Source of the DNA: a bacterium
Lineage (GTDB): Bacteria; Patescibacteriota; Patescibacteriia; Patescibacteriales; GWC2-42-12
Length of the DNA: 51,599 bases
Assembly (NCBI GenBank): GCA_030649205.1
Contig: JAUSGE010000029.1
Coordinates: 1 to 51,599, forward strand
Reading direction: 5' to 3'
Positions 10,891 through 51,599 of this stretch are shown piece after piece. The stretch's first letter is position 1. Every line of letters begins with the position of its first letter. The notes beneath the pieces are model-generated. The model worked only from the letters and a program-made list of their open reading frames with translations, did not search any database and was not told the DNA's origin. The position numbers and the translations under genes were made by a program.

Positions 10891-10928
10891 GGAGAAAAAT
10901 AATTTAAAAAGCTAAAATTAGAACCTAT

Positions 10929-13986: not shown

Positions 13987-14496
13987 TTATTTATAATGGG
14001 TAATAAGATAAAAAACCAAGCTTAGAATCGCCAGCGAGCCGACCGGCACAACGACCTTCTGGAAAGGAAAATACGCTTTACCGCCATTTTTTTTCTTAAG
14101 ATATTCATTAAACAACACGCTGGCGGTAAAACCAATTGTGCCGATAATAATGCCGATAATTAATTTATCAATTCCCCACAATTTATTCAAAGGATGGCCG
14201 GCGATCTTATAATAAAAAAGCGGCCAGATCATCATGGCGTAATAGGCGATAAAAATCAACGGCTGCCGGCCCAAGAATCTAATATTTTTTTTGGTCAGCC
14301 AATTAATGGTTAAAAGCGACGCTGAAACCGCCAGAGCGCCGATCCACAGTCCGGTAATGGTATCATCAACGCCCAGCCAGCGGGAAAAACCCACGCCGGC
14401 GGAGACGGCCGCCGTGCAAATTACGCAAATCGGCAAGGCCTTGGCCGCGGCCAAAGGCAGGAGCAGTAAAAACGAGAAAATTATAAAATATAGCAT
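13987..14496 (-). CDS. Hypothetical polytopic membrane protein
   Basis: 169-aa ORF with about five hydrophobic helices; it leads a two-gene minus-strand unit. Confidence 0.55.
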   Translation of the reverse strand: MLYFIIFSFLLLLPLAAAKALPICVICTAAVSAGVGFSRWLGVDDTITGLWIGALAVSASLLTINWLTKKNIRFLGRQPLIFIAYYAMMIWPLFYYKIAGHPLNKLWGIDKLIIGIIIGTIGFTASVLFNEYLKKKNGGKAYFPFQKVVVPVGSLAILSLVFYLITHYK

Positions 14497-14541
14497 AATT
14501 TTGATTAATTATTTTACTTGATCATTATACCATATACTTTT

Positions 14542-14599
14542 TGTCATTGCGAGGGAGATTTTTCCGGTTGGCTCCATAGTCCCGCAGGGCTATGGAGCC
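14542..14599. repeat. Family A 5' end fused to a family C hairpin
   Basis: tgtcattgcgaggga... is followed by ggctccatagtcccgcagggctatggagcc. Confidence 0.8.
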
Positions 14600-14701
14600 A
14601 AGCACCGACAGTGATAACATTTGACTATTTATTTTTTAATGTTAGTATTATTTTAAAACTAAAACAAAAAACCATTATAAGGAGAATGAGGAAATGAGAG
14701 A

Positions 14702-14806
14702 ATGGCTAACCGAGCATTTAGTGGTGGCGCCGCTTTACGGCCTGATGCTGTGCCTACGGCGGCTATTTTTAAGTTGCTACGCCGGCAAAGTAAAAGCAAC
14801 TTATGA
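14702..14806 (+). CDS. Candidate 34-aa small ORF (MANRAFSGGAALRPDAVPTAAIFKLLRRQSKSNL)
   Basis: GAGGA lies ~10 nt upstream of the ATG at 14702. The TGA at 14804 sits immediately before a terminator hairpin. The competing 70-aa track ORF (14694..14906) reads through that terminator and through repeat units. Confidence 0.3.
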   Translation: MANRAFSGGAALRPDAVPTAAIFKLLRRQSKSNL

Positions 14807-14810
14807 GCAG

Positions 14811-14850
14811 AGCGGGTGTCGTGCTAGTCACGCACCCGTCTTTTATTTTT
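14811..14850 (+). terminator. Rho-independent terminator
   Basis: gcgggtg-N14-cacccgt followed by cttttatttttgg. Confidence 0.65.
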
Positions 14851-14958
14851 GGACTATTTTTCTGCCCTGCTTTAGCAGGCTTTTAACTCCGGTTAAAGCC
14901 GGGTAGAAAAAAATATAACAATATGATAAAATACAGATAGTATTTTTTAATCAATAAT

Positions 14959-15243
14959 ATGATAAACGTAAATAACAAGCTGGACAAAATTAAAAGCGAA
15001 AGTTCTAAAATTTCCCGCGAAGTTAAAGACAGGACTTTCGGCTTTATTATCACGGCCTTAAGCCTGGTGGCCGGCCTGGCCTGGAATGAGGCCATCCAAT
15101 CGCTCATCAATAATTATTTTGCCATGAACAAAAATTCCATTTTGGCAAAATTTGTTTATGCCGTTATTTTGACATTAATACTTACATTGATTACAATTTA
15201 TCTGGCCAAAATTTTCGGCCGGAACGATCAAGAAAAAGAATAA
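14959..15243 (+). CDS. Small two-TM membrane protein (DUF5654-like from memory)
   Basis: 94-aa ORF. FGFIITALSLVAGLAWNEAIQSLI and a second helix FVYAVILTLILTLITIYLA. Confidence 0.55.
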   Translation: MINVNNKLDKIKSESSKISREVKDRTFGFIITALSLVAGLAWNEAIQSLINNYFAMNKNSILAKFVYAVILTLILTLITIYLAKIFGRNDQEKE

Positions 15244-18004: not shown

Positions 18005-19318
18005 ATGACAATAAACAATATCAAAACTAATCATAAAATAATACGAGGAGATTCAAGGCGGATGAAAGAATTGGCCAACGATTCTGTCCATTTAGTAATT
18101 ACATCGCCGCCATATTGGCAGCTAAAAGACTATGGTACTGAAAATCAAATTGGTTATCACGATAGTTATGAAAATTACATAAATAATCTAAATTTAGTTT
18201 GGCAAGAATGCTACCGGGTTTTAGAAAATGGCTGCCGTTTATGTATTAATATCGGAGATCAGTTTGCTCGTTCGGTTTATTATGGGCGATATAAGGTTAT
18301 ACCAATAAGAACAGAAATTATTAAATTTTGTGAAACTATTGGTTTTGATTATATGGGATCCATTATTTGGCAAAAATCTACCACCATGAACACGACAGGC
18401 GGAGCAACAATCATGGGATCATTTCCTTATCCTCGAAATGGGATCATTAAACTTGACTATGAATTTATTTTGATATTTAAGAAAAACGGGGAGCCACAAA
18501 AATTAAATAAAGAATTAAAAGAATTATCAAAACTAACCAAGGAAGAATGGAATTTATATTTTCAGGGGCACTGGCATTTTAACGGAGTAAGGCAAGATGA
18601 CCATATTGCAATGTTCCCCGAAGAATTGCCAAAAAGATTGATAAAAATGTTCTCTTTCGTCGGCGATACAATAGTTGATCCATTTGTGGGCAGTGGCACA
18701 ACATTATTGGCTGCAAAAAATTTAAGCCGAAATTCTGTTGGTTATGAAATAAATCCGAAATTTATAAATACAATCAAACAAAAATTAGAAGTTAACACTA
18801 ACAAAATGTTTGATAATTCAACTGCGAACTTTATAGATCAAGGCAATACAAAAAGTGATTACAGCGAAGAAATTTCCAAATTGCTTTATATTTTTAAAGA
18901 CCCTATTAAACTTGATAAAAAAATAGACCTAAAAAAATTACAATTTGGATCGAAAATAGATGATAGCAAGACACAAAGAATAGATTTTTTTACCGTAAAA
19001 GAAATAATAGATCCGAAAACGATTAAATTAAACAACGATTTAGTTGTTAAATTATTGGGTATAAAAATTAATCCTGAAAAAAGCGAGGACGCTAAAAAAT
19101 ATTTATTAAATAAAACCAACAAACAAAAAGTTTTTTTAAAATTTGATAACTTAAAATACGATAAAGAAAACAATTTATTGTGTTATTTATATTTACAAAA
19201 TAAAACTTTTATTAACGCTCATTTAATTAAAGAAGGATATGTTTTTGTCAATAATGAAATGGATTACAAATGTAAAGAAAAATTTATTAATTTATCTCAA
19301 AATAATTATGAAAAATAA
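18005..19318 (+). CDS. Type II DNA methyltransferase (beta-class N4-C/N6-A amino-MTase) fused to a C-terminal staphylococcal-nuclease-like OB domain
   Basis: Motif IV VITSPPYW lies near the N-terminus and motif I FVGSGTTLLAA downstream (PF01555-type order). The C-terminal LLGIKINPEK...CYLYLQNKTFINAHLIKEGYV is SNase-like. The region is clearly more AT-rich than its flanks. Confidence 0.8.
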   Translation: MTINNIKTNHKIIRGDSRRMKELANDSVHLVITSPPYWQLKDYGTENQIGYHDSYENYINNLNLVWQECYRVLENGCRLCINIGDQFARSVYYGRYKVIPIRTEIIKFCETIGFDYMGSIIWQKSTTMNTTGGATIMGSFPYPRNGIIKLDYEFILIFKKNGEPQKLNKELKELSKLTKEEWNLYFQGHWHFNGVRQDDHIAMFPEELPKRLIKMFSFVGDTIVDPFVGSGTTLLAAKNLSRNSVGYEINPKFINTIKQKLEVNTNKMFDNSTANFIDQGNTKSDYSEEISKLLYIFKDPIKLDKKIDLKKLQFGSKIDDSKTQRIDFFTVKEIIDPKTIKLNNDLVVKLLGIKINPEKSEDAKKYLLNKTNKQKVFLKFDNLKYDKENNLLCYLYLQNKTFINAHLIKEGYVFVNNEMDYKCKEKFINLSQNNYEK

Positions 19319-20006
19319 AACATCAAAGAAATTTTCAGCCGATTTCGGCAAAAAGGAAAAGGTGTTAAATTATGCTTGCCAAACTTATCAATTGTCCCGA
19401 CCCAATAAAGTCGGTGCGGTAATGGCATTAATAAGAGAATGCCAACCCAAGACAATAGACGAATGGGAAAAATGGTATTTTGAAAAAGCATTTACTGAAA
19501 GCAAGGAACCCATAAAGGTAACACAAGAAATTTTGAAAGAATTGGGCGAGCGCTTGCATGAAAAAATTACCGAGGTTGTCATACCAGAATGGCAAGCCGC
19601 TTTCATCGAATTATCGCTACAAGATTGCAAAGATTATATTTATAACCTGACAATAAATCGTACTTACGATGGTTTTATTCGTGAAAAATCTGTTGTCAAC
19701 GATGGATTAGCTAAACATTTTCCAGAAGTAAAATTTATTGAAAGCGACAACGACCTTGATCATGCTGGAGATATAGATTATTTAGGATTTGTAGACGAAA
19801 AAGCTTTCGGAATACAAATCAAACCGATTACTGCAAAAGCAAATTTTGGTAATTATTCCGTATCCGAAAGAATGAAAAGGAACTTTCTTGATTTTGAAAA
19901 AAAATATCAAGGCAAGGTATTTATTGTTTTTAGTTTAGACGGAGAGATTGGAAATAAAGAAGTTATAAAGGAGATTGAAACAGAAATAAAGAGACTAAAA
20001 AAATAA
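19308..20006 (+). CDS. Putative type II restriction endonuclease (PD-(D/E)xK-like), translationally coupled to the methyltransferase
   Basis: The ATG at 19308 overlaps the MTase stop (19316-19318) by 11 nt. HAGDIDYLGFVDEKAFGIQIKP fits D-x(n)-(E/Q)-x-K. The track ORF start at 19239 lies inside the MTase gene. Confidence 0.5.
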   Translation: MKNKTSKKFSADFGKKEKVLNYACQTYQLSRPNKVGAVMALIRECQPKTIDEWEKWYFEKAFTESKEPIKVTQEILKELGERLHEKITEVVIPEWQAAFIELSLQDCKDYIYNLTINRTYDGFIREKSVVNDGLAKHFPEVKFIESDNDLDHAGDIDYLGFVDEKAFGIQIKPITAKANFGNYSVSERMKRNFLDFEKKYQGKVFIVFSLDGEIGNKEVIKEIETEIKRLKK

Positions 20007-30059: not shown

Positions 30060-30758
30060 ATGACCTTCCACATCATCACAATTTTTCCTCACATCTTTGA
30101 CTCTTATTTTAACGAGTCAATTCTTAAGCGCGCGCTAACCAATAAATTGATCACTATAAAAATTCATAACCTGCGCGACTGGACAACGGACAAGCATCAA
30201 ACCGTGGACGACGCCCCGTTCGGCGGCGGCGCCGGCCTGGTCATGAAGATTGAACCATTATACAAAGCCCTGCGCGATATTACCCCCCTTGCAAAGGGGG
30301 GCAGGGGGGTTAAAACCATATTATTATCCGCTAAGGGCAAAACCTGGAACCAGCGCCTGGCAAAATCGCATAGCCAGCTTAAGAATATCATCCTAATCTG
30401 CGGCCGCTACGAAGGCGTGGATGAAAGAATCACAAAATTTATTGACGAAGAAATTTCCATCGGCGATTATATTTTAACCGGCGGCGAGATCGGCGCTCTG
30501 GCCATTATTGACTCCATCACCCGCCTTCTGCCCGGCGCTTTAGGCAACGCGGACAGCGCCAAATACGAATCGCACTCCACTGCCGGTGTTTTAGAACATC
30601 CGCATTACACCCGCCCGGAAATTTTTACCGCCACCCCCCTTATAAAGGGGGGCAGGGGGGTTAAATCCTACCGCGTTCCCAAAGTATTATTATCCGGTAA
30701 TCATAAAAAAATAGCCGACTGGCGCGCCAAAAAATCAAAGCGCCTTCACCCCCTTTAA
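30060..30758 (+). CDS. trmD: tRNA (guanine37-N1)-methyltransferase TrmD, carrying two in-frame repeat insertions
   Basis: The start is the ATG at 30060 (MTFHIITIFPHIF); the track start at 29988 lies in repeat DNA. Motifs: DDAPFGGGAGLVMK, ICGRYEGVDERI, ISIGDYILTGGE, LLSGNHKKIADWR. Repeats at 30282-30315 and 30633-30667 encode TPLAKGGRGVK and TPLIKGGRGVK. Confidence 0.9.
   Translation: MTFHIITIFPHIFDSYFNESILKRALTNKLITIKIHNLRDWTTDKHQTVDDAPFGGGAGLVMKIEPLYKALRDITPLAKGGRGVKTILLSAKGKTWNQRLAKSHSQLKNIILICGRYEGVDERITKFIDEEISIGDYILTGGEIGALAIIDSITRLLPGALGNADSAKYESHSTAGVLEHPHYTRPEIFTATPLIKGGRGVKSYRVPKVLLSGNHKKIADWRAKKSKRLHPL
30282..30315. repeat. Family E palindrome inside trmD (copy 1)
   Basis: accccccttgcaaaggggggcaggggggttaaaac. 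Confidence 0.85.
30633..30667. repeat. Family E palindrome inside trmD (copy 2)
   Basis: accccccttataaaggggggcaggggggttaaatc differs from copy 1 in the hairpin loop (gc versus at) and in the last 3 nt. Confidence 0.85.
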
Positions 30759-30947
30759 CAAAGGGGGTTAGGGGGATTTTTATCGTTTTTGGCTCCATAG
30801 TGCCGTCAGGCCTGTGGAGCCGTTTTGTTTATTTGTCATTCCCGCCCGTCTCGCGTCGGCGCGAGCCGAGGCGAGCGCAGGAGGGAATTCAAAAATTTAT
30901 TGTCATTGCGAGAAGCCTGTAATCAGGCGACGAAGCAATCTCACGAA
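30747..30947. repeat. Repeat cluster E + C + B + A after trmD; the E unit contains the trmD stop codon
   Basis: 30747-30779 caccccctttaacaaagggggttagggggattt (TAA at 30756-30758). Also 30791-30821 (C), 30836-30895 (long B hairpin) and 30901-30947 (A left half). Confidence 0.85.
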
Positions 30948-31022
30948 GACTCGAAGTTGACATAAACAAAGCGAGAGAGATATAATTACAATATAATTTC
31001 AAAATATTTAATCATACATGTT

Positions 31023-31436
31023 ATGCAAGCACAAGACCTGCAACAAATCGGCCAGTTAATGGACGAAAAACTTAAAGAGAATAACAAAATATTAAAAGAG
31101 GAAATAACCAGCGAATTGACTAAAAAAATTGATAATAAAATTGATGAATTGGCAATTACTGTAAATTCAGCCTTTAGCGAACAAAAAGAATATTTAGATG
31201 AAAAGTTTGTTGAAATAGACAAAAAGTTTGTTGAAATAGGCGATAACTTCAAAGAGGTTAAAGAAGAAATAGCTAAACGGCCGACCACGGATAAAATGTT
31301 TTCCTGGGCGGATGAAAGGATAACGACTTTGGAACTGGACACGGATAAAATAAAATATCTGCATCGTGAAGAATGGAAAAAATTGCCAAGCGCTCCAGAG
31401 ATAAATAAGTCTCTAATAGAAGCGGGCATTAATTAA
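31023..31436 (+). CDS. Hypothetical coiled-coil protein
   Basis: 137-aa ORF, K/E-rich, with an internal tandem EKFVEIDKKFVEIGDNF. A terminator follows. Confidence 0.5.
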   Translation: MQAQDLQQIGQLMDEKLKENNKILKEEITSELTKKIDNKIDELAITVNSAFSEQKEYLDEKFVEIDKKFVEIGDNFKEVKEEIAKRPTTDKMFSWADERITTLELDTDKIKYLHREEWKKLPSAPEINKSLIEAGIN

Positions 31437-31459
31437 TAAATCATTTAACATTAGCCATA

Positions 31460-31487
31460 AAAATCGTCATTCGTTGACGATTTTTTG
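31460..31487 (+). terminator. Rho-independent terminator
   Basis: aaaatcgtca-ttcgt-tgacgatttt followed by ttg. Confidence 0.8.
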
Positions 31488-31678
31488 ATTTTATGCTATG
31501 GTTAGCAGTTAGTTCTTTTAGCATTGTTATGCCAAACAGAACCAAATCGAACCTTTATATCTCCCTCTTGACCTGTTTATTTTTAGGCAGGCCAAGGGTG
31601 AGGCACAAAGGTTCGATTGTCGGACTTTGAAAATTGAAAAACAACAAACAATCAAAAAAATTTTGGAGGAAAATTATC

Positions 31679-32689
31679 ATGGCAAAAAAACCTACAAGTA
31701 CAGCAACGCCTACTACTCCCCCTGCTACAACCGCAACGCCACCAACTCCTGTTGTACCCGTTGTTGTACTTCCAACACCCACTGCTACCACCCCGGCCGC
31801 TGCTCTAAGTGATCCAGTTGAGTTGCAACTGCTAAAAAGTGAGTTGCCTAACAGGGACATTAGAATTTTCGCCCGCGTCCTCAATATCGTGGATAAGGGC
31901 TTGGGGCGGAAGCAGGTAGTCTTCACCCGTGACGGAGAACAGAAAGTCGCCATCACCAATAGTCAAGGGGATACGATGTATCCTGACCCCATAACTCCTC
32001 TCCCGGCAGGGAAAGAGACAAAAGTCTCGGCTCATATTTCCGGGATTAGAAATTTTTCTGTCATGCATATTATTAAAAGGGTTGTTAAGACCCCGGCGCA
32101 AATGGCAAAGGACAGAAGAAATAATAAAATTGCAAAATATTTTATTCTTTTTATGGGCGCCCTTTGGTTGGCCAGTTGGTTGATTGCTTTTATTTTTGGA
32201 TTAGGCAATCCACTAATTGATTTTTCCCAAACTAAACTCTCGGATCAGCAGGTATTTTTTAATAACCTGCCGGGAGTCAAAGGGAGCGCTAAGGAAATAA
32301 AATTAGACCAACCGCAGAGTTTGGGACAATGGCAAAAACCATTTTTTCTGGCGGTTCTTCTATGGACCATATTTTGCATTTTTTATGGCATTCTTGCTTG
32401 CCGTGAGGAAGCCATGGAAGGATTCCGCAAGGGGATAGAAAAGCTGGTGGACAAACACTATAATACTGCCAGCGCCCGAGATCCGTTTTTTGAAAGGCTT
32501 TTGGCGTTCTCTGGACATCTTGCTACTGCCAAAAGACCAACTTCAACCACTGCCACCCCTGCCGGAAGTGCTACCACACCGCCGACTAATGTCAGGCCAT
32601 CTTTTTGGGAGTTATTTAGATCTGACATTTTGTCAGATCTAATTGTTGAAGTGCTTCCCAGTGTAATTAAATCCGTTCGTGGGCGATAA
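31679..32689 (+). CDS. Hypothetical membrane protein with T/P-rich termini
   Basis: The ATG at 31679 has GGAGG 9 nt upstream; the track start at 31634 is less likely. N-terminal TSTATPTTPPATTATPPTPVVPVVVLPTPTATTP. Two TM helices (FILFMGALWLASWLIAFIFGL; FFLAVLLWTIFCIFYGILA). A second T/P-rich patch lies near the C-terminus. Confidence 0.55.
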   Translation: MAKKPTSTATPTTPPATTATPPTPVVPVVVLPTPTATTPAAALSDPVELQLLKSELPNRDIRIFARVLNIVDKGLGRKQVVFTRDGEQKVAITNSQGDTMYPDPITPLPAGKETKVSAHISGIRNFSVMHIIKRVVKTPAQMAKDRRNNKIAKYFILFMGALWLASWLIAFIFGLGNPLIDFSQTKLSDQQVFFNNLPGVKGSAKEIKLDQPQSLGQWQKPFFLAVLLWTIFCIFYGILACREEAMEGFRKGIEKLVDKHYNTASARDPFFERLLAFSGHLATAKRPTSTTATPAGSATTPPTNVRPSFWELFRSDILSDLIVEVLPSVIKSVRGR

Positions 32690-32732
32690 CTGTGGAAGAT
32701 AACAAAGAATTTAATTTTTAAAGGAGGTCCTA

Positions 32733-33506
32733 ATGAAAATTTATGCTAAGTATAGTATTATTACTTTTGTGGTTGCCTTTTTGTTGGCGCTACTGACATG
32801 GCGTTTGCAAGTAGGGATAGCTACTCTGATGCTGTTCCAATTAGGTTACGGAATCCACAGTCTCCGCAAAACATACCCATGGATAGCGGTAATTACCGGT
32901 TCAATAATTAGCGTCGTAATTATTTGTGGATTACTTTGGTGGTTTTTTAGAATAAACTTTCCCCTAAGTTACGATACCTTTCCGTGGGGAAAGAATTACC
33001 GCGATGCCCAAATCGCAAAATTCATTGACCCCGGTTTGTCGGAAGCCAGGTCGGTACTCTTTTTGGAATTACGAAAAAAGGACGATGCCCTCGCCGCCGA
33101 TATTCCCAACTTAATGAAAGATGGGAAATATGATGAGATAAAAAAACGAACTCAAGAGTTAATTGATCACCGTAAGGAGATTGAAAAACTCATAGCACAA
33201 ACTGATCCGCCGCCAGCGCCCAACCAGATTCCCTCTGCGGCCCAGCCAGTCATTGAACTCAAAAAAGGCGACAAACGCCTTTATGAGATCAGCGATGATG
33301 GTTATTCGTCAAGGATATTCGTCCCTAGCGGCGTTCATTATGATTTGACCTCAACGGGCGGCAAGCCTTACGAGGTCGTATTTGACAACGGACTACGGAT
33401 TGCGGTTGTGCCTGGTGAGCCGCATATCAACGCTCCAACAGTTAATCCCTGCATTTTCCGCATATATAGTAAGGAAAAGCAGGGGATTTTAATTGAAGGA
33501 AATTAA
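32733..33506 (+). CDS. Hypothetical membrane protein (three N-terminal TM helices + soluble C-terminal domain)
   Basis: AGGAGG lies 6 nt upstream of the ATG. 257 aa. It lies between 31679..32689 and the pilin-like gene on the same strand. Confidence 0.55.
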   Translation: MKIYAKYSIITFVVAFLLALLTWRLQVGIATLMLFQLGYGIHSLRKTYPWIAVITGSIISVVIICGLLWWFFRINFPLSYDTFPWGKNYRDAQIAKFIDPGLSEARSVLFLELRKKDDALAADIPNLMKDGKYDEIKKRTQELIDHRKEIEKLIAQTDPPPAPNQIPSAAQPVIELKKGDKRLYEISDDGYSSRIFVPSGVHYDLTSTGGKPYEVVFDNGLRIAVVPGEPHINAPTVNPCIFRIYSKEKQGILIEGN

Positions 33507-33582
33507 AAGAAGGAGGAAAAATTTAGTACACTAGGGGTAAGTCCAACTTGCCCCTTTTATTTTTTTAAAAAAATCTGCTATA

Positions 33583-34140
33583 ATGTTAGTAATTATAATT
33601 TATACTCAAAATGTGCTTAAAAAAATTTGTTTAATTACTGTTCTATTTTTTGCGTTTCTTATAACTGCTCGTCACGCTAAAGCTGATAGCAATGCTATCT
33701 GCGACTGCGACGGAAATACTAGTTGGGTAACTAATTGCAGTACTGACAACTGCCCTGATGTGTGCTCTTGCACATACTCGCCAAATTCTAACATAAGTGG
33801 TAATGGAGCTGTTGCACCCAACATTAGCGGGCCTGGAGCAAGCGGCGCCCCCGGTCAACCGGTCCAACTCACCAACCCCCTGACCGGCAACGCCACCAGC
33901 AAAGACATTCCCACTCTGCTCGGCAACATCATCCAATACGCCATGGGCATCATCGGCTCGCTGGCTTTGGTGATGTTTATTTTCGGCGGCGCGACTTGGA
34001 TGCTGTCGGCCGGCAACCAGGAGCGGGTAACCAAGGGCAAAAATATTATTATCTGGGCGGCCCTGGGCCTGGCCATGATTTTCACGGCCTACGCTTTGGT
34101 CAGATTCCTGATTGAAACTCTGGGCAAGTCGGGCGGCTGA
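33583..34140 (+). CDS. VirB2/TrbC-like T4SS-pilin family protein with a Cys-rich, G/P/N-rich mature N-terminus
   Basis: The C-terminal module FGGATWMLSAGNQERVTKGKNIIIWAALGLAMIFTAYALV matches the other ten paralogs. There are 8 Cys in ~35 aa after the signal peptide (AICDCDGNTSWVTNCSTDNCPDVCSCT). The start may instead be the GTG at 33613. Confidence 0.7.
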   Translation: MLVIIIYTQNVLKKICLITVLFFAFLITARHAKADSNAICDCDGNTSWVTNCSTDNCPDVCSCTYSPNSNISGNGAVAPNISGPGASGAPGQPVQLTNPLTGNATSKDIPTLLGNIIQYAMGIIGSLALVMFIFGGATWMLSAGNQERVTKGKNIIIWAALGLAMIFTAYALVRFLIETLGKSGG

Positions 34141-34150
34141 CAACTCGCAA

Positions 34151-34601
34151 CTCATAGCTCATAACCCGTAACCCAAATTCAAAAAACTTCCCTAAGGAAG
34201 TTTTTATTTTATCTTGCTTATTATTCCCCAAACCATGCCGCCGATATCATCCGCTAATTTTGATAATAAGTCATAGTCATCCTGCTTTAAATAATTTTCC
34301 GATAGAGCAAAATAGATTAAATACTTTGTTTCTTTTAACGAGCCATACGATATTTCTAAAAAATTTTTATATACTTTGCAATTATCGCCTTTCCTTCTGG
34401 CAAAACCCTCTATGTAATTTAAAATAATTGACAAGGCCGCTCTTCTTAATTGAGATGTAAGCCCATATAATTCGTCTCTGGGAAAATTTCTGCTGGCTTT
34501 ATATACGGATTTCACATACTGATGCATCTTTAATTTAAGTTCATCATGATATCCCATAAAATAGAGTTATGAGTTGCGGGTTACGGGTTACGAGCTATGA
34601 G
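34151..34601. other. Inverted-repeat-bounded cassette carrying the four-helix-bundle gene
   Basis: The left arm ctcatagctcataacccgtaaccc (34151-34174) matches the reverse complement of 34578-34601 at 23/24 positions. Confidence 0.7.
34204..34557 (-). CDS. Four-helix-bundle protein (23S rRNA intervening-sequence protein family, TIGR02436-like)
   Basis: FPRDELYGLTSQLRRAALSIILNYIEGFARR...ISYGSLKETKYLIYFAL is the family signature from memory. 117 aa. Confidence 0.8.
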   Translation of the reverse strand: MGYHDELKLKMHQYVKSVYKASRNFPRDELYGLTSQLRRAALSIILNYIEGFARRKGDNCKVYKNFLEISYGSLKETKYLIYFALSENYLKQDDYDLLSKLADDIGGMVWGIISKIK

Positions 34602-35487: not shown

Positions 35488-36659
35488 GCTCGGTTTGAAA
35501 AAATTGTTTTTATCGCGCATACGAAATTGTAGCGATTTTTTTGAGTTAAGAGAAAATTAGGGTGCTTAATAATTTGATTTTTGTTCATACTTTAGATAAA
35601 ATAACGGCACAATTTACAATTAACCGTAAATCTAAATGTATGGTATATAAAAAAATGTCCAGTTTGCCAAGCGTCAAAGGTAATTAAAAAAGGAAAGCGA
35701 CGCGATGTTCAACGGTATCAGTGCGCTACTTGCGGCGCCAGTTTCCAGAGCAAAAGGCGAAAACAAAAATTTCTCAAGAAAATTCAGAATGAATATATTT
35801 TTGGCCGTCAAACCGCTAAAATTCTCGGCGGGAAATATCATCGAAGTCGAAAATGGGTTTTACAACAATTGAAAGAAGTTAATGGCGACGATAGTAATAT
35901 CATCGACATTATTCCTCGGTCAATCGTAGTCGTAGCTGATGCCACTTTTTTCTCGCGATCAGACGGCATGCTAATTTTTAGAGAACCGAATTTAAAACAA
36001 AATCTAATCTGGAAAAAAATTTATGTTGAGACCGCGGGTCAATATGAACAATTAAAACTGGAGCTGGAAAGTAAGGGGTTCGCCATTAAAGCTGTGGTTT
36101 TAGACGGCAGACCGGGCATTAGAGATTCCTTTCGCGGCATACCGGCTCAAATGTGCCAATTTCATCAAGTTGCCATTATCCGAAGATATTTGACCAGCCG
36201 TCCAAAATTAGAGGCGGCCCAAGAGCTGATGATTATCGCCAGACAATTAACTAAAAGCAATGAAAAATATTTTTCCGATTTACTAACCGCCTGGTATGAA
36301 AAATGGCAAAAATTTTTAAAAGAAAAAACTATTAATCCGTTTACCAATCAATGGTTTTACACGCATAAAAGATTGAGAGCCGCTTTCCGTAGCCTAAAAA
36401 ACAATCTGCCATATCTGTTCACTTACCAGAAATATCCTGAATTGCACCTGCCTAATACCACTAATTCATTAGACGGATATATTTCAGCTTTAAAGAACTT
36501 TTTAAATGTCCATCGGGGTCAAGGCAGGAGCAGCCGAAACAAAATAATTTGCCAAATATTGAAAAAATAAGCACCCTAATTTTCCCTTAAACCATTTTTT
36601 TTGAAAAAAAATCGCCCAAATTTCGTCTAAGCAGGAAAAACAATTTTTCAAACCGAGCC
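35488..36659 (+). mobile_element. Insertion sequence (~1.17 kb) with ~80-bp imperfect terminal inverted repeats
   Basis: The left end gctcggtttgaaaaaattgttttt...gaaaattagggtgctt (35488-35567) mirrors the right end aagcaccctaattttc...aaaaacaatttttcaaaccgagcc (36569-36659). A single transposase frame lies inside. Confidence 0.85.
35869..36570 (+). CDS. DDE-type transposase (IS1-like N-terminal zinc ribbon; family uncertain); start codon unresolved
   Basis: The track ORF starts at the TTG at 35869. The same frame is open back to 35605 and encodes a zinc ribbon, CPVCQASKVIKKGKRRDVQRYQCATCGASF (35656-35745), with no ATG/GTG/TTG upstream of it. Catalytic-core-like VVVADATFF, VVLDGRPGI and TNSLDGYISALKNFL. 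Confidence 0.65.
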   Translation: MKEVNGDDSNIIDIIPRSIVVVADATFFSRSDGMLIFREPNLKQNLIWKKIYVETAGQYEQLKLELESKGFAIKAVVLDGRPGIRDSFRGIPAQMCQFHQVAIIRRYLTSRPKLEAAQELMIIARQLTKSNEKYFSDLLTAWYEKWQKFLKEKTINPFTNQWFYTHKRLRAAFRSLKNNLPYLFTYQKYPELHLPNTTNSLDGYISALKNFLNVHRGQGRSSRNKIICQILKK

Positions 36660-37669: not shown

Positions 37670-37784
37670 TGTCATTGCGAGCGACCGAAGGGAGCGCGGC
37701 AATCTCACGGACAATTAATTTTAGAAAAAGTTCGATGTTTGTGAGATTGCTTCGTCGCCCGAGTACAGGCTCCTCGCAATGACA
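37670..37784. repeat. Full-length family A palindromic element (115 nt)
   Basis: tgtcattgcgagcgaccgaagggagcgcggcaatctcac ... gtgagattgcttcgtcgcccgagtacaggctcctcgcaatgaca. Confidence 0.9.
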
Positions 37785-37790
37785 ATCTCG

Positions 37791-38222
37791 CTAGGTCGGT
37801 ATAGTCCCGGTAGTCGCCCCAATCAATTGGTTGATGACAAAATTAGCCAGGGCAAAAGACGCTAAAATAATCACTAAGCCGATAACGCCGGCGATTAAAA
37901 TCTTCTTGGCCGCGGCCACATTTTCTTCATTGCCGCCGGCCGTCATCCAGCGAAAACCGGCGTAAAGAATTAATATAACCGCGATAATTCCCAAAAATCC
38001 CAGGGCAATATTGATTATCTTCACCGCCAGCAGGCGAGGATCATTATCGTTGACCCCGCCCAGAGGCCCGTTGTTGATCTCGTTGCGCACGCCGTTCCCC
38101 CAAATTTGATCCAAATTCGTGGCCGCCAAAATCGGCGCCGGCGAAGCAACGGCCAAGGCCCAGCCCAAAACCAATAAAATCATTGGCAGGGCAATAATCG
38201 TTTTATGCCTTTTTTTTCTCAT
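37791..38222 (-). CDS. VirB2/TrbC-like T4SS-pilin family protein
   Basis: Signal peptide, then YAGFRWMTAGGNEENVAAAKKILIAGVIGLVIILASFALANFV. Confidence 0.75.
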   Translation of the reverse strand: MRKKRHKTIIALPMILLVLGWALAVASPAPILAATNLDQIWGNGVRNEINNGPLGGVNDNDPRLLAVKIINIALGFLGIIAVILILYAGFRWMTAGGNEENVAAAKKILIAGVIGLVIILASFALANFVINQLIGATTGTIPT

Positions 38223-38251
38223 AATCTTAATTTTAAATATTAATTTATTTT

Positions 38252-38647
38252 TTATTCCATGCCAGTCGTGGCCTTAAAAATCTGGCTAATCACAAAATTA
38301 GCCAGCGCGTAGGAAGCTAAAATAATCACCAAGCCGATAACGCCGGCGATTAAAATCTTCTTGGCCGCGGCCACGTTTTCTTCATTGCCGCCGGCCGTCA
38401 TCCAGCGAAAACCGGCGTAAAGAATTAAAACCACGGCTATAACGCCTAAAAAGCCTAAAGCTATGTTAATAATGTCAATAATTGTGAACCTAATATCCCG
38501 CGGCGCGCCTGATTGGTAGGCCTGGCCAACCTGGTTCAATCCTCCGGTTTGAACTTTTTCCAAAATGGTTTCCGCTCTGGCCTGAAGCGGCAACCCGGAC
38601 AATAATATCATTGCCGCTAACGCAACAGCTAAGTTATGCTTAAGCAT
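38252..38647 (-). CDS. VirB2/TrbC-like T4SS-pilin family protein
   Basis: Signal peptide, then YAGFRWMTAGGNEENVAAAKKILIAGVIGLVIILASYALANFV. A 98-nt tract is 97/98 identical to the downstream paralog. Confidence 0.75.
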   Translation of the reverse strand: MLKHNLAVALAAMILLSGLPLQARAETILEKVQTGGLNQVGQAYQSGAPRDIRFTIIDIINIALGFLGVIAVVLILYAGFRWMTAGGNEENVAAAKKILIAGVIGLVIILASYALANFVISQIFKATTGME

Positions 38648-48073: not shown

Positions 48074-48508
48074 TTAACTTCCGCCAACTATCGTTCCCGT
48101 ACTATTAACTCCCGATAAACTCTGAAACACGAAATAAGTGATGGCATAGGCGGCAAGAATAATGATCAGGCCGATGATCGCCCGCGTTAACGTATTTTTG
48201 GCTTTAGTAACCTTTTCATCATCGCCTTGCGCCGTCATCCAGTTATAACCGGCGTAAATGATTAACACTAAAAAAATTATGCCCAATAAACTTAAAAATA
48301 CGCTAACCACATCTTTGATCAAGTTTGGTAAATCGGCGGCCGGATCATTTACTGGAGTTCCCCAGCCGGTTGTTCCCGCGCTATCCAACTGGGTTTGTAA
48401 ATCATCCGCGGCGCTTGCTCGGCTAAACTGAACGGTGAAAACAAAACTAACAGCCATGGCCGCTATAAATAAAAAGCTAAAAATTAATTTTGTGTATGTT
48501 TTTATCAT
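48074..48508 (-). CDS. VirB2/TrbC-like T4SS-pilin family protein (array member 8, last in transcription order)
   Basis: The start is the ATG at 48508 (MIKTYTKLIF...); the track N-terminus MARLLRRDYAARNDK is repeat DNA. YAGYNWMTAQGDDEKVTKAKNTLTRAIIGLIIILAAYAITYFV. Confidence 0.75.
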   Translation of the reverse strand: MIKTYTKLIFSFLFIAAMAVSFVFTVQFSRASAADDLQTQLDSAGTTGWGTPVNDPAADLPNLIKDVVSVFLSLLGIIFLVLIIYAGYNWMTAQGDDEKVTKAKNTLTRAIIGLIIILAAYAITYFVFQSLSGVNSTGTIVGGS

Positions 48509-48519
48509 AACTTTACTTT

Positions 48520-48628
48520 TGTCATTGCGAGCCGCGTAATCGCGGCGAAGCAATCTCGCCAATAGCGTCTCTTGACCAAACTCGCCATCCGTTAGATTGC
48601 TTCGTCGCTGGCGCTCCTCGCAATGACA
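48520..48628. repeat. Full-length family A palindromic element (109 nt) between two pilin genes
   Basis: tgtcattgcgagccgcgtaatcgcggcgaagcaatctcgcc ... gattgcttcgtcgctggcgctcctcgcaatgaca. Confidence 0.9.
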
Positions 48629-48634
48629 TCAAAG

Positions 48635-49042
48635 TCATTGCAGAATGCCCGTGCCGGTAACCAGTTTATCAAACACCCAAGCGCTGATGGCATAGGCGGC
48701 CACAGTGATAATTATACCGATAATAGCGCGCGTCAGCGTGTCCTTGGCCTTGGTAACTTTTTCCTCATCGCCCTGCGCCGTCATCCAGTTATAGCCGGCA
48801 TAAATTACATAAATTAAAAATATCACGCCTAACAAGCCTAAAAACGCCTGGATAACCAAGCCGATGATACTGGCAATATCGTTTTCCCCCGGACTATACG
48901 CGGCATAAGGAGCAATACTGCCGCTTTCACCAGTATTTTTTAAATTTTCTAAAGCCGAGCTGTCGGCCGCGGCCAGATAAGGCGCGGCTATTAAAGCCAG
49001 CAATAGACTTGCCACAAAAATTTGTTTAATATTTTTTTTCAT
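48635..49042 (-). CDS. VirB2/TrbC-like T4SS-pilin family protein (array member 7)
   Basis: Signal peptide. YAGYNWMTAQGDEEKVTKAKDTLTRAIIGIIITVAAYAISAWV. Confidence 0.8.
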   Translation of the reverse strand: MKKNIKQIFVASLLLALIAAPYLAAADSSALENLKNTGESGSIAPYAAYSPGENDIASIIGLVIQAFLGLLGVIFLIYVIYAGYNWMTAQGDEEKVTKAKDTLTRAIIGIIITVAAYAISAWVFDKLVTGTGILQ

Positions 49043-49044
49043 AA

Positions 49045-49497
49045 TTATTCGAAGGCGGAGTTTAGATTTTCGGGATTGCTTCCGCCTTTTAAAGTTCCTT
49101 GCTCCAATTTGGACATGATAAAGACGCTGATGGCGTAAGCGGCGATAATAATAATCGCGCCGATAATCGCTCGGTTAAGCGTATCCTTGGCTTTAGTAAC
49201 TTTTTCCTCATCGCCTCGGGCCGTCATCCAGTTATAGCCGGCGTAGAGCATGTAAATTAACAGTATCACGCCGATTAAGCCTAAAAAAGCGCTGATGCCG
49301 ATTTGAATAACGGAAAAGAGAGTATTGCCAGTGCCGGTGTCATAACCTCCGGCATCGCCTGTTTTTTGCGCTTGATTATAAATATTTTGATTAACGTCCG
49401 GCTTTAGCGGTCCGGCGGCCGAACAAAAATTTACCGCGGCTAGCGAGAGGATGAACAAAATAATTACCAGGTTAATTTTTTTATGCTTACTAGACAT
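49045..49497 (-). CDS. VirB2/TrbC-like T4SS-pilin family protein (array member 6)
   Basis: Signal peptide. YAGYNWMTARGDEEKVTKAKDTLNRAIIGAIIIIAAYAISVFI. There is a 2-nt gap to the next gene. Confidence 0.8.
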   Translation of the reverse strand: MSSKHKKINLVIILFILSLAAVNFCSAAGPLKPDVNQNIYNQAQKTGDAGGYDTGTGNTLFSVIQIGISAFLGLIGVILLIYMLYAGYNWMTARGDEEKVTKAKDTLNRAIIGAIIIIAAYAISVFIMSKLEQGTLKGGSNPENLNSAFE

Positions 49498-49567
49498 AAT
49501 TATCGCGACCTATATGATTGATTAGTTAATCTTAATTTTTACTAAATTTCCTGTAGATTTGCGGGTG

Positions 49568-49942
49568 TTAAAACAATGCGCTGAAAATAAAAGCCCAGAT
49601 AGCGTAAGAGCCGATCACAATAATAATACCTATAATGGCGCGCGTCAGAGTATCCTTGGCCTTGGTAACTTTTTCTTCTTCGCCTCGGGCCGTCATCCAG
49701 TTATAGCCGGCGTAGAGCATGAGTATTAAAAATATCGTACCAATCAAGCCAAGAGCGCCCTGAACTACCGCGCCGATGACATTAGACAAGCCAATCTTAT
49801 CCACTGACTCATAAGGCCCGTTATTACTTCCAATATTTTGCAATTTATCCAAAGCGTCAAAGGCCCAGGCCGAATGCGGCAAACTAGCAATGGCCGTCAT
49901 CAGCCAAACAAACAAACTCGCATTTAGGTATTTTTTAGACAT
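49568..49942 (-). CDS. VirB2/TrbC-like T4SS-pilin family protein (array member 5)
   Basis: Signal peptide. YAGYNWMTARGEEEKVTKAKDTLTRAIIGIIIVIGSYAIWAFI. Confidence 0.8.
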   Translation of the reverse strand: MSKKYLNASLFVWLMTAIASLPHSAWAFDALDKLQNIGSNNGPYESVDKIGLSNVIGAVVQGALGLIGTIFLILMLYAGYNWMTARGEEEKVTKAKDTLTRAIIGIIIVIGSYAIWAFIFSALF

Positions 49943-49947
49943 GATTA

Positions 49948-50367
49948 TTATTTTAATACCTGACTGCCCAAAGCGTTGAGCGCATACCAGCTGATAGCGT
50001 AAGCGGCCAGAACTATTACCAAACCGATAATGGCGTTAATCAAAGTATTTTTAGCCTTTTCCACCATTTCATCATTGCCCCGCGCCATCATCCAAGTATA
50101 ACCTGCGTAAATCGCCAACACCAAAAAAATTACGCCAACTAATTCTATTACTGTCCTAATCACTAAACTAATCATGCTATCCGGACTGGCCAGACTAGCG
50201 TCAGTTTTATAGCCAGCCCCTTTTTCGCCGGCTACATTATTTAGAGGTTCTTTAAAAGCATTGCCTAAATTATCCGCATAGCAGAAAGCTGAATATAAAA
50301 AAAATGATGACAAAATCAGAGTCAAGGCAAAAACTTTTTTAAATCGCGCGTTATTAATTATTTCCAT
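49948..50367 (-). CDS. VirB2/TrbC-like T4SS-pilin family protein (array member 4)
   Basis: Signal peptide. YAGYTWMMARGNDEMVEKAKNTLINAIIGLVIVLAAYAISWYA. It overlaps the upstream gene by 10 nt. Confidence 0.8.
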   Translation of the reverse strand: MEIINNARFKKVFALTLILSSFFLYSAFCYADNLGNAFKEPLNNVAGEKGAGYKTDASLASPDSMISLVIRTVIELVGVIFLVLAIYAGYTWMMARGNDEMVEKAKNTLINAIIGLVIVLAAYAISWYALNALGSQVLK

Positions 50368-50756
50368 AAAGTTGCCGCCAATTGGGTTAGAGCGTAAGCG
50401 CTTAAAACTATGGCCAGGCCGATAGCCGCGCCATAAATAATCTCCCTGGCCTTAGTCACTTCTTGCTCATTGCCGCGCGCCATCAGCCAAATAATGCCGG
50501 CGTAAATTATTAAACCTAAAAAAATTATTCCTAAAAATGAGATAACCAATTTTAAGACTGAACCGATCCTTGAATACAGGCTGGCGGTTATATTATTATT
50601 TTGGTTAACGGCTGGGTACCCGATCGCATTAGCTGAATTATCCAAGCCTTGCTGGAAAGTTTTGGTGGATTCGGCCAAAACAGGAAGCGATAGAGTGTAA
50701 AAAAATATATTACTTAAAAGCGCTAAACCGAGAATTAAAAATAAAAGTTTCTTCAT
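50358..50756 (-). CDS. VirB2/TrbC-like T4SS-pilin family protein (array member 3)
   Basis: Signal peptide. YAGIIWLMARGNEQEVTKAREIIYGAAIGLAIVLSAYALTQLA. Confidence 0.75.
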   Translation of the reverse strand: MKKLLFLILGLALLSNIFFYTLSLPVLAESTKTFQQGLDNSANAIGYPAVNQNNNITASLYSRIGSVLKLVISFLGIIFLGLIIYAGIIWLMARGNEQEVTKAREIIYGAAIGLAIVLSAYALTQLAATLWK

Positions 50757-50764
50757 AATTACTG

Positions 50765-51157
50765 CTAAGTGGCCGTAAAAGTCGCTCCAATATAAGAAGT
50801 TATCACATAGGCCATTAAGATAATAATCAAACCAATGGCCGCGGCAATAATTACGTCTTTGGCTTTAGTAACGGTTTGTTCATTACCCATGGAAAACATC
50901 CACAAATAGCCGCCGTAAATCATTAAAACAAAGAAGACAACTCCCAAAAAAGCCAAGGCCGCGCCCACGACTTTGCCAATGGCTAAAGAAGGGTCCTGAA
51001 TGGCTGGCAAATTACCGCCATAGCCTTTGGTGGCCGTAGTATTTAAACCGCCCAGAGCATCATCAGTCCCTGCCGCTAAACTAATCGGCGCCATTATTAA
51101 AAATGATAAAACTATTATCAGGACGGAAAGAATTAATTTAGAGTGTTTGATAAACAT
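50765..51157 (-). CDS. VirB2/TrbC-like T4SS-pilin family protein (array member 2)
   Basis: Signal peptide. YGGYLWMFSMGNEQTVTKAKDVIIAAAIGLIIILMAYVITSYI. Confidence 0.75.
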   Translation of the reverse strand: MFIKHSKLILSVLIIVLSFLIMAPISLAAGTDDALGGLNTTATKGYGGNLPAIQDPSLAIGKVVGAALAFLGVVFFVLMIYGGYLWMFSMGNEQTVTKAKDVIIAAAIGLIIILMAYVITSYIGATFTAT

Positions 51158-51167
51158 AAACTCTATC

Positions 51168-51267
51168 TGTCATTGCGAGGAGGCCGTAATCGGCCGACGA
51201 AGCAATCTCACGTACTCGGAGCTTAATCAGAGATTGCTTCGCCCCGAGTACGGGGCCCGCAATGACA
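51168..51267. repeat. Full-length family A palindromic element (100 nt) between two pilin genes
   Basis: tgtcattgcgaggaggccgtaatcggccgacgaagcaatctcacgtactcgg ... gagattgcttcgccccgagtacggggcccgcaatgaca. Confidence 0.9.
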
Positions 51268-51370
51268 ATCTGATTTTCCACTGCTCTAAGCGCAAAAATT
51301 TATCTTACGCTTACGGCAGTGGCCCCGGAAACGGCCGGGAACCACTTTTTTTACTAATATTAAGGTTATT

Positions 51371-51599
51371 TTAGGTATTTGCGTTGGTCGCGATAAGCAG
51401 TTGACCCATGACAAAAGTCGCGATGGCATAGGCCGCCAAGATGATTACCAGGCCGATGATACCGGCCACAATCAATTTTTTAGCCTCGGCCACTTTGTCC
51501 TCGCCGCCCCCGGCCGTCATCCATTTAAAGCCGCCCAGCAGAATAATCACTACCGCGATAATGCCTAAAAAGCCTAAAATCACGTTAATGACTTGAGCG
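51371..51599 (-). CDS. VirB2/TrbC-like T4SS-pilin family protein (array member 1); the 5' end runs off the window
   Basis: The frame stays open to the window edge (...AQVINVILGFLGIIAV). LGGFKWMTAGGGEDKVAEAKKLIVAGIIGLVIILAAYAIATFV is the same subfamily as 37791/38252. Confidence 0.75.
   Translation of the reverse strand, partial: AQVINVILGFLGIIAVVIILLGGFKWMTAGGGEDKVAEAKKLIVAGIIGLVIILAAYAIATFVMGQLLIATNANT

Follow-up and report, generated by a model that had tools for sequence, protein, structure and literature searches.

The stretch analyzed here, a 51,599-nt contig of a Patescibacteria genome (JAUSGE010000029.1; hereafter the window), carries a gene for a VirB2-like pilin (g3) preceded on the same strand by genes for two membrane proteins, g1 and g2 (Table 1). 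As the initial annotation had stated, three plus-strand open reading frames (ORFs) lie at 31679..32689, 32733..33506, and 33583..34140 with gaps of 43 and 76 nt, and they are bounded on both sides by terminators or cassettes, namely, terminator-like hairpins at 31459-31485 and 34182-34205 and, after the pilin gene, a cassette for a 23S intervening-sequence (IVS) protein flanked by inverted repeats. The outline of the proteins held in most respects: g3 carries a pilin module, g2 has three transmembrane (TM) helices in aa 1 to 75 followed by about 180 soluble residues, and g1 has a T/P-rich N terminus, a second T/P-rich tract, and two TM helices, the second tract, however, not lying at the extreme C terminus. 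Comparison with related loci (designated L001 to L017) showed that the three genes are kept together in nearly every contig that is long enough and that a segment spanning the junction between g2 and the pilin gene is replaced as a block. The surroundings are those of an ordinary Patescibacteria chromosome, with rpsP, a gene for a KH-domain protein, trmD, smpB and the tmRNA, the trigger factor gene, nusA, and genes for an H+-PPase, a ROK protein, and glycosyltransferases, as well as tsaE and lspA. The best named relatives of the pilin come from metagenome-assembled genomes (MAGs) of Candidatus Falkowbacteria.

Table 1. Features of the g1-g2-pilin locus, with positions in the window
Feature	Positions	Strand	Description	Source
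g1-g2 promoter	31474..31502	+	TTGACG, 17 nt, TG-extended TATGGT	Consensus scan
Leader hairpin	31545..31618	+	74 nt; 31-nt inverted repeat I4 upstream of g1
g1	31679..32689	+	336 aa; GGAGG ribosome-binding site 9 nt upstream	ORF and family alignment A1
g2	32733..33506	+	257 aa; GGAGG upstream; three TM helices (aa 1-75), conserved helical stalk (aa 76-158), Pro-rich hinge, replaceable tip of ~90 aa (aa 168-257)
Variable cassette	33204..33858	+	655 bp; g2 hinge and tip, terminator, pilin promoter, signal peptide, Cys head, G/P/N linker
Terminator-like hairpin ending g1-g2	33533..33565	+	33533-33555, 10-pair stem with 5 GC pairs, then T-run TTTTATTTTTT
Pilin extended -10 element	33574..33582	+	TGCTATAAT	Direct sequence reading
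g3	33613..34140	+	VirB2-like pilin, PF18895; 175 aa from GTG 33613 (most likely start)
Six-Cys mini-domain	33700..33771	+	CDCDGNTSWVTNCSTDNCPDVCSC	Translation
Terminator-like hairpin after pilin	34182..34205	+		Hairpin scan

Conservation, transcription, and a replaceable segment

The initial annotation offered co-occurrence of the three genes in related genomes as a check of their association, and co-occurrence is what we found. A g1-like gene, a g2-like gene, and a PF18895 pilin gene follow one another in the window, in L001/L002 (NCBI MAG JAUSEG010000022.1), in the ENA contig that encodes protein P0017, and in the 299-kb contig L010, and divergent triads are present in L013 (g1 31% identical; g2 profile match with E = 4.6e-18), L014, and L012, the last with one extra gene. 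Adjacency of g1-g2 to a pilin gene holds down to about 25 to 30% g1 identity. L015 has other neighbors on both flanks (NusA and H+-PPase, these being upstream, in place of trmD and ROK), and its g1-like and g2-like genes (E = 1.5e-14 for the latter) still lie beside pilin genes, of which the adjacent one is convergent and encodes a head with 17 Cys. Mobile insertions occur before g1 or after the pilin gene and never within the triad; those seen are AbiEii and HEPN/NTase toxin-antitoxin pairs, a coiled-coil ORF, and the IVS-protein cassette. Of note, L010 (CAZLKB010000001.1) is titled "uncultured Gammaproteobacteria" yet is collinear with the Patescibacteria loci (rpsP-KH-trmD-g1-g2-pilin-ROK), and its taxonomic label is probably wrong.

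In the Falkowbacteria loci L004 and L006, the slot between trmD and a homologous pilin gene is occupied by a split version of g1, which consists of a separate Ig-like protein and a two-TM core and is accompanied by an unrelated polytopic protein. The split core aligned with the core of g1 in hhalign with a probability of 92.6% (E = 4.6e-7). The same program detected no homology between g2 and the polytopic proteins of 337 to 381 aa found at this position, and for the Ig-like domain of g1 it gave no significant match to the Ig-like proteins encoded separately (E = 0.024, probability 2%). Searches of Pfam, NCBIfam, and PDB sequences with the positional counterparts of g1 and g2 in relatives returned nothing meaningful.

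The three genes had initially been read as a single unit. The 76-nt gap, however, holds a terminator and a promoter, which argues for a g1-g2 operon plus an independently promoted pilin gene, so that the triad is probably carried on two transcription units and not on one transcript. The hairpin at 33533-33555 with its T-run is the strongest terminator-like hairpin of the region, and a GC hairpin followed by a T-run lies between g2 and the pilin gene in 10 of 10 loci (the window and nine related intergenic regions), with a (TG)nTATAAT-like box after it in most of the ten. Since the stem sequences differ among these loci, it is the design that is conserved and not the sequence. The pilin promoter is probably the stronger of the two and would give a short leader lacking a Shine-Dalgarno sequence.

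Upstream of g1, the near-consensus promoter pattern TTGAC-N17-TGCTATnAT is kept in 9 of 10 aligned related loci. The leader that follows contains a hairpin with a minimum free energy of -39.1 kcal/mol (z = -6.8), and RNAalifold applied to five loci predicted 39 pairs in the whole leader, about 29 of them in the hairpin, with compensatory changes at 7 pairs. The leader DNA is 80% identical to that of Falkowbacteria locus L004 despite downstream coding sequences that do not align. The hairpin, whose 5' arm is CCUCCCUC-rich and whose 3' arm is GGGNGAGG-rich, matched no Rfam family, and a metagenome scan with a loose pattern of it gave chance matches, none of which, among the matches listed, passed a stricter filter. 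The leader may be an undescribed cis-regulatory or stabilizing element.

The segment that encodes the g2 tip and the pilin head is replaced as a block among relatives. In blastn comparisons, homology of the window to L001 and L003 ends at 33202/33203, and it resumes at 33859 to 33862 (L001, L004, and L017), exactly at the pilin motif PVQLTNPL. The breakpoints common to the comparisons are 33203 and 33214 on the left and 33859 on the right, and in L001 and L010, where close homologs of the pilin lack the head, the whole of positions 33204 to 33858 is replaced relative to the window. L016 provides the reciprocal view, being 77.6% identical to the window at the DNA level across 33214-34205 only. 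This stretch takes in the tip, the Cys head, the pilin body, and the DNA between the two genes, and what L016 encodes before it is an unrelated membrane anchor. Silent donor copies of the cassette were not found in the window, nor was there a direct repeat of head or tip sequence between 28 and 39 kb.

A diversity-generating retroelement was considered and rejected, as no reverse transcriptase domain was present among the scanned ORFs and no template repeat was found. The bAvd-like neighboring gene at 34204-34557, which had prompted the idea, is primarily a 23S_rRNA_IVP gene (E = 1.1e-25), its bAvd score of 27.8 bits being below the cutoff of 40.

The pilin, its head, and the two companion proteins

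g3 matched PF18895 (T4SS_pilin) with 50.2 bits (cutoff 26.6; E = 2.8e-13) over profile positions 2 to 71 of 71. It also matched the NCBIfam Mbov_0395 pilin-like family below cutoff (E = 1.9e-5), and many of its close homologs match PF04956 (TrbC) as well. The ATG at 33583, from which the gene had at first been read, overlaps the extended -10 box TGCTATAAT and probably lies upstream of the transcription start of the pilin gene. The public gene call (P0021) and the close homologs P0022 to P0024 have the 175-aa start, and g3 most likely begins at GTG 33613. The protein has a signal peptide with the h-region LITVLFFAFLI and a predicted cleavage between AKA and DS, and its helices, at about aa 102 to 131 and 145 to 163 of the 175-aa form, are separated by a short basic loop, SAGNQERVTKGKN.

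The two-TM pilin module is preceded by a G/P/N linker and the PVQLTNPL motif. NPL is present in 112 of the 120 best g3 homologs and absent from the array paralogs of the window, and the C-terminal module is the most conserved part of the pilin, with about 70 to 80% identity in close homologs. No tandem repeat was found in the DNA of the linker. By these sequence marks, g3 is a representative of a distinct "NPL-motif" subfamily of VirB2-like pilins.

Ten further PF18895 paralogs are encoded in the window, as had been counted before. Two lie at 37791-38647, where a 212-nt stretch is 83% identical between the genes, and eight lie at 48074-51583, where a minus-strand tandem run of eight or more pilin genes continues past the end of the window. 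Both groups fit the published arrays of 2 to 11 genes in bacteria of the candidate phyla radiation (CPR).

The mature head of g3 had been described as containing 8 Cys in about 35 aa; it contains 6 Cys in 24 aa (CDCDGNTSWVTNCSTDNCPDVCSC), and a seventh belongs to the signal peptide. The pattern CxC...C...CPxxC...C is common to g3, P0022, and P0023 and is loosely followed by P0024, and a homologous six-Cys head was found in these relatives only. That of P0023 accompanies a type-A g2 tip, as verified in L016, and we infer the same pairing for P0022. None of the ten paralogs in the window has a Cys-rich head. Among the 120 best homologs, the head contains 0 Cys in 66 proteins, 2 in 31, 4 in 12, at least 6 in 7, and an odd number in 4, Cys-bearing heads thus making up about 45% of the NPL subfamily. 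The bias toward even numbers points to disulfide bonds in heads located outside the cell and suggests that extracellular disulfides are formed. The proposal of a disulfide-bonded head is accordingly plausible, and a Cys-rich head is not unique: by the distribution of Cys counts, the head of the window is the extreme of a graded theme that is common among close homologs.

Pilin heads in this group can become large, complex domains. L015 encodes, at 10196-10924, a PF18895 pilin of 242 aa whose head has 17 Cys and, at 14310-15188, a 292-aa protein in which a Cys-rich head is followed by two tandem pilin modules.

The AlphaFold2 (AF2) model of g2 is poor, with a pLDDT of 49, and shows the three TM helices and a helical hairpin at aa 104 to 155, the C-terminal domain being unmodelled (pLDDT below 35). 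Foldseek searches with it returned helical hairpins only, with E above 1. Following the positive-inside rule, the stalk and tip are predicted to lie outside the cell. The stalk is 43 to 70% identical in seven relatives. The tip is 72 to 88% identical in two proteins (P0002 and P0003) and unrelated in every other relative, and there are at least three types of tip.

From its N to its C terminus, g1 comprises a T/P-rich tail (13 T and 11 P in aa 1 to 45), an Ig-like beta-sandwich (aa 48 to 132), TM1 (aa 155 to 173), a 48-aa loop with the motifs GLGxPL and WQKP, TM2 (aa 222 to 240), helices that start with REE, a T/P linker (aa 283 to 305), and a conserved C-terminal helix of 30 aa, FWE..SDLLSD. 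The AF2 model has a mean pLDDT of 59, with values of 70 to 83 in the beta-sandwich, and contains the sandwich, a long TM helix, the 48-aa loop, and the second TM helix, after which amphipathic helices begin at an invariant R-E-E. When this model was compared with the PDB by Foldseek, generic Ig-like domains alone were retrieved, none with E of 1e-3 or lower, and no VirB8-like match was seen.

A profile search of 1.84e9 representative proteins gave 107 matches to the g1 family, about 95 of them with the full architecture. Most of these full-length homologs have 400 to 660 aa; the homologs that we inspected have, at their N terminus, one or several additional Ig-like repeats and, in some cases, a zinc ribbon. 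The weakest matches concern only the Ig-like repeats of giant proteins. In a word-indexed search of 5.8e9 proteins, 13 proteins related to g1 and 5 related to g2 were retrieved, all of them uninformatively named and without a Pfam domain, and a search with alignment A1 led to related loci in only two GTDB species genomes. Neither protein matched a Pfam, NCBIfam, or PDB sequence entry, the Pfam result being empty even at E values up to 1, and tblastn found no match to g1 in 72,556 plasmids or to g2 in 50,697 phage records. Resemblance to generic transporters, which the initial annotation had named as a refuting outcome, or to any other known family was not observed in these searches.

The Ig-like domain of g1 is predicted to be cytoplasmic. 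An N-in topology is supported by nine K/R residues just before TM1 (positive-inside rule), by the lack of a signal peptide, by the N-terminal zinc ribbons of homologs, and by the separate Ig-like proteins that L004 and L006 encode at this position, which lack a signal peptide, the one in L006 additionally bearing a zinc ribbon.

Insertions and repeats around the locus

The gene for the IVS protein downstream of the pilin gene (34204-34557, minus strand; PF05635, E = 1.1e-25) lies between 24-nt inverted repeats at 34151-34174 and 34578-34601 that are 96% complementary, and it constitutes a cassette of its own. Between the pilin and ROK genes, relatives have either this cassette (L006 and L010) or a HEPN/NTase toxin-antitoxin pair (L001, L004, and L017). 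Before g1, a 137-aa coiled-coil ORF at 31023-31436 has a terminator of its own and, at 30957-30986, a promoter with the perfect sequence TTGACA-18-TATAAT; it matches no family and is specific to the genome of the window, relatives having an AbiEii/DUF6922 toxin-antitoxin pair in its place. Farther downstream, between the ROK gene and a glycoside hydrolase (GH) gene, an IS256-family element with terminal inverted repeats occupies 35488-36658 (Zn-binding variant, NF048019, E = 1.4e-74) and is absent from the syntenic loci. Its transposase ORF (35869-36570) lacks the first ~84 profile positions and may be truncated or start elsewhere.

A GC-rich palindromic unit of 36 nt (CCCCCCTTGCAAAGGGGGG...) occurs in trmD at 30282-30317, 30633-30668, and 30749-30784. 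Two copies are in frame within the gene (...PLAKGGRGV... and ...PLIKGGRGV...), at sites that alignment identified as sites of insertion or deletion among TrmD homologs, and the third, at the 3' end, serves as a terminator. In-frame palindromic insertions are known from Rickettsia (Rickettsia palindromic elements), and the units in trmD resemble these. The GTG start listed for trmD (29988) is probably wrong, the conserved start being ATG 30060. Another repeat, a unit resembling repetitive extragenic palindromes (GTCATTGCGAG...CGACGAAGCAATC), is present in 15 copies versus 0.5 expected, mostly in intergenic positions (for example, 30899-30947 and 37738-37786); one of them, 45 nt long, has a counterpart of 100% identity in L003, in genomes that are only about 70 to 75% identical elsewhere. 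Finally, a low-GC island at 18005-20006 (0.30 versus ~0.43) encodes an N4/N6 DNA methylase-SNase-like fusion and an MjaI-type restriction endonuclease and is probably a horizontally acquired restriction-modification system.

Possible functions of the g1-g2-pilin locus

Our current reading, which we hold to be about evenly poised between right and wrong, is that the locus is a pilin-specific surface display or adhesion cassette, chromosomally encoded and conserved in one lineage of Patescibacteria. The conserved promoter and structured leader would drive a g1-g2 operon ended by the intrinsic terminator. g1 would be a mostly cytoplasmic membrane adaptor, with its Ig-like domain and REE helices inside and its conserved 48-aa loop outside, and g2 would hold its swappable tip outside the cell on the helical stalk. 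The processed pilin would form a two-helix hairpin in the membrane with its N-terminal head outside, in the window a mini-domain with three disulfides mounted on the G/P/N linker. The termini of VirB2-type pilins face outward in F and T pili, and by analogy the head of g3 would decorate the surface of the filament. We propose that g1-g2 may act as the dedicated membrane partner of the pilin, for its insertion, holding, anchoring, or hand-over to a type IV secretion system (T4SS) encoded elsewhere, and that the g2 tip and the pilin head could bind each other or the same ligand on a host cell. Swapping of the segment would then change surface specificity, with consequences for host range or evasion.

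Several observations weigh against this reading. The 51.6-kb window is devoid of a T4SS ATPase, and no match to VirB4, VirB6, VirD4, PrgI, or TrsD was found among the scanned ORFs of at least 100 aa, so that the earlier suggestion of a minimal assembly module, for which the window supplies neither an ATPase nor another T4SS gene, is unproven. With a terminator and a separate promoter between them, g1-g2 and the pilin gene are not obligatorily co-expressed. The pilin and the tip exist without g1 in L016, type-B tips occur with two different heads, and the co-replacement of tip and head could reflect nothing more than their proximity in a single recombination tract. The L003 contig diverges immediately behind the pilin promoter and stops after another 460 bp, and no pilin gene is seen. 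The wider order rpsP-KH-trmD...ROK is common to most of the loci, and part of the linkage could hence be inherited gene order. The structural models are at best moderate for g1 and poor for g2 (pLDDT 59 and 49), the tip of which is unmodelled. Lastly, a groundwater DNA metagenome is the only public run that contains the sequence of the window.

The shared gene order leads to an alternative in which g1 and g2 are membrane proteins with envelope or housekeeping roles and without functional tie to the pilin, their linkage being inherited synteny only. The collinearity of rpsP-KH-trmD ... ROK-GH-pilins-Polysacc_synt in L001, L004, L006, and L010 fits this explanation, as does the terminator and separate promoter that part g2 from the pilin gene. 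We nevertheless regard it as unlikely, because g1-g2 stays beside pilin genes in L015 despite different flanks, the adjacency persists at about 25 to 30% g1 identity, mobile insertions are found on both sides of the triad and never in its interior, and in L016 the pilin is accompanied by the g2 tip. A different possibility is that no pilus is made and that g3 simply displays its head from a two-TM surface anchor, forming with the stalked g2 a membrane adhesin/receptor pair that requires neither polymerization nor a T4SS. That the most conserved part of the pilin is its C-terminal module (~70 to 80%) fits tight packing constraints, homology to PF18895 and TrbC links g3 to polymerizing pilins, and Southlakia requires its pilin arrays as well as the T4SS, all of which make this possibility look distinctly improbable to us, even if the window contains no T4SS gene, large heads such as that of L015 (242 aa, 17 Cys) might hinder helical packing, and a published survey found CPR pilin genes away from virB4 in 813 of 1,948 assemblies.

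The initial annotation had looked toward VirB3, VirB6, and VirB8 for an identity of g1 and g2, which might then be extremely diverged inner-membrane core subunits of a T4SS (counterparts of VirB8/PrgL, VirB3/PrgI, or VirB6) encoded with one pilin away from virB4. Homologs of VirB8 and, in some phyla, of VirB6 are scarce in CPR surveys, whose authors suspect strong divergence of VirB8 (PMC12102498); moreover, pilins need a membrane platform, and the architecture of the Falkowbacteria polytopic proteins of 337 to 381 aa, with their hydrophilic C-terminal domain, recalls that of extended VirB6. The proteins themselves give no signal of this kind. Members of the VirB6/TrbL/PrgH group are recognized by at least five TM helices and a profile match, and g1 and g2, with two and three TM helices, matched none in Pfam at E up to 1 or in NCBIfam at E up to 0.01, nor did a PDB profile search yield a T4SS match. 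VirB8/PrgL/TcpC proteins consist of a single N-terminal TM helix and then an NTF2-like domain, whereas in g1 an Ig-like sandwich lies N-terminal of two TM helices and in g2 three TM helices are followed by a helical hairpin and a tip whose model (pLDDT below 35) gives no fold. At 336 and 257 aa and with no profile match, g1 and g2 also depart from VirB3/PrgI, which have about 100 aa and one or two TM helices. Taken together with the generic Ig-like folds retrieved for g1 and the empty searches of plasmids (g1) and phages (g2), these results leave the idea unsupported. The g1 family is, in addition, tiny (~100 clusters in 1.84e9 representatives) compared with CPR VirB4, which is present in thousands of genomes, and we consider a core-subunit identity very unlikely.

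Returning to surface display or adhesion, a bolder form of that reading, which we think quite unlikely, is that g1, g2, and the NPL pilin constitute a self-contained, lineage-specific organelle in which the tip-head pair would set host recognition and would be exchanged as one two-gene cassette with fixed breakpoints, g1 coupling the structure to the cytoplasm.

VirB2-like pilin arrays are widespread and variable in CPR bacteria and essential in Southlakia (PMC12102498; PMC12857230), where Candidatus Southlakia epibionticum depends on an array of six pilin genes (Wang et al. 2023; Quinonero-Coronel et al. 2025, PMC12102498). With these arrays g3 shares the Pfam family, the signal peptide, the two-TM hairpin, and the variable mature N-terminal region, and the presence of many divergent paralogs per genome is likewise seen in the window, which has 11, including the tandem run of at least eight. 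g3 differs in being a singleton outside the arrays and a member of a separate, well-conserved NPL subfamily, with no virB4 nearby in the available sequence, and in following the g1-g2 pair as well as a terminator and promoter of its own.

Companion membrane proteins are not without precedent among VirB2-class pilins. The propilin of the F plasmid, TraA, has a dedicated inner-membrane chaperone, TraQ (about 94 aa), and a modifier, TraX, and there, too, the pilin needs small dedicated membrane proteins of the same cluster for insertion and accumulation in the membrane before assembly. g1 and g2 have no similarity to TraQ in sequence or size, being larger and having Ig-like and stalked external domains, and a dependence of g3 on g1-g2 is putative only. 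In the archaeal Ced system for DNA import, cedA1, encoding a VirB2-like pilin, is clustered with CedA and CedA2, and the VirB4-like ATPase CedB is encoded apart. The likeness lies in a pilin gene grouped with a few membrane-protein genes, its ATPase being elsewhere; CedA, however, is polytopic with about six TM helices, and no link to DNA uptake is evident at the g1-g2-g3 locus.

Pilus variation by recombination is known from pilE/pilS of Neisseria. VirB2 paralogs vary in Bartonella and Anaplasma (cited in PMC12102498). Common to these systems and to the present locus is a conserved assembly module combined with a hypervariable exposed part, segments being replaced between conserved flanks. 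Unlike in the Neisseria type of variation, replacement here is seen between genomes, without silent donors in the window, and not within one population, the metagenome showing a single contig at 17x depth and zero variants; the swapped unit, moreover, spans two genes. In the CPR pilin literature that we searched, we did not find the g1 and g2 families, their association with NPL pilins, the design of terminator-promoter and leader, or the two-gene swap cassette described.

How Patescibacteria attach to and live off their hosts is a central open question of their biology. The only genetically tractable strain cannot do without its VirB2-like pilins, whose ligand and handling are still to be learned. 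The locus offers a testable handle on both, with a distinct pilin subfamily, two companions without known relatives, a conserved transcription layout, and a sharply bounded cassette. If the tip-head pair does set host specificity, it would provide a marker from which the host range of uncultured lineages could be read in sequence data, as well as candidate proteins for binding assays, and the organelle reading, if true, would make of this locus a module by which an ultra-small epibiotic bacterium switches its host range.

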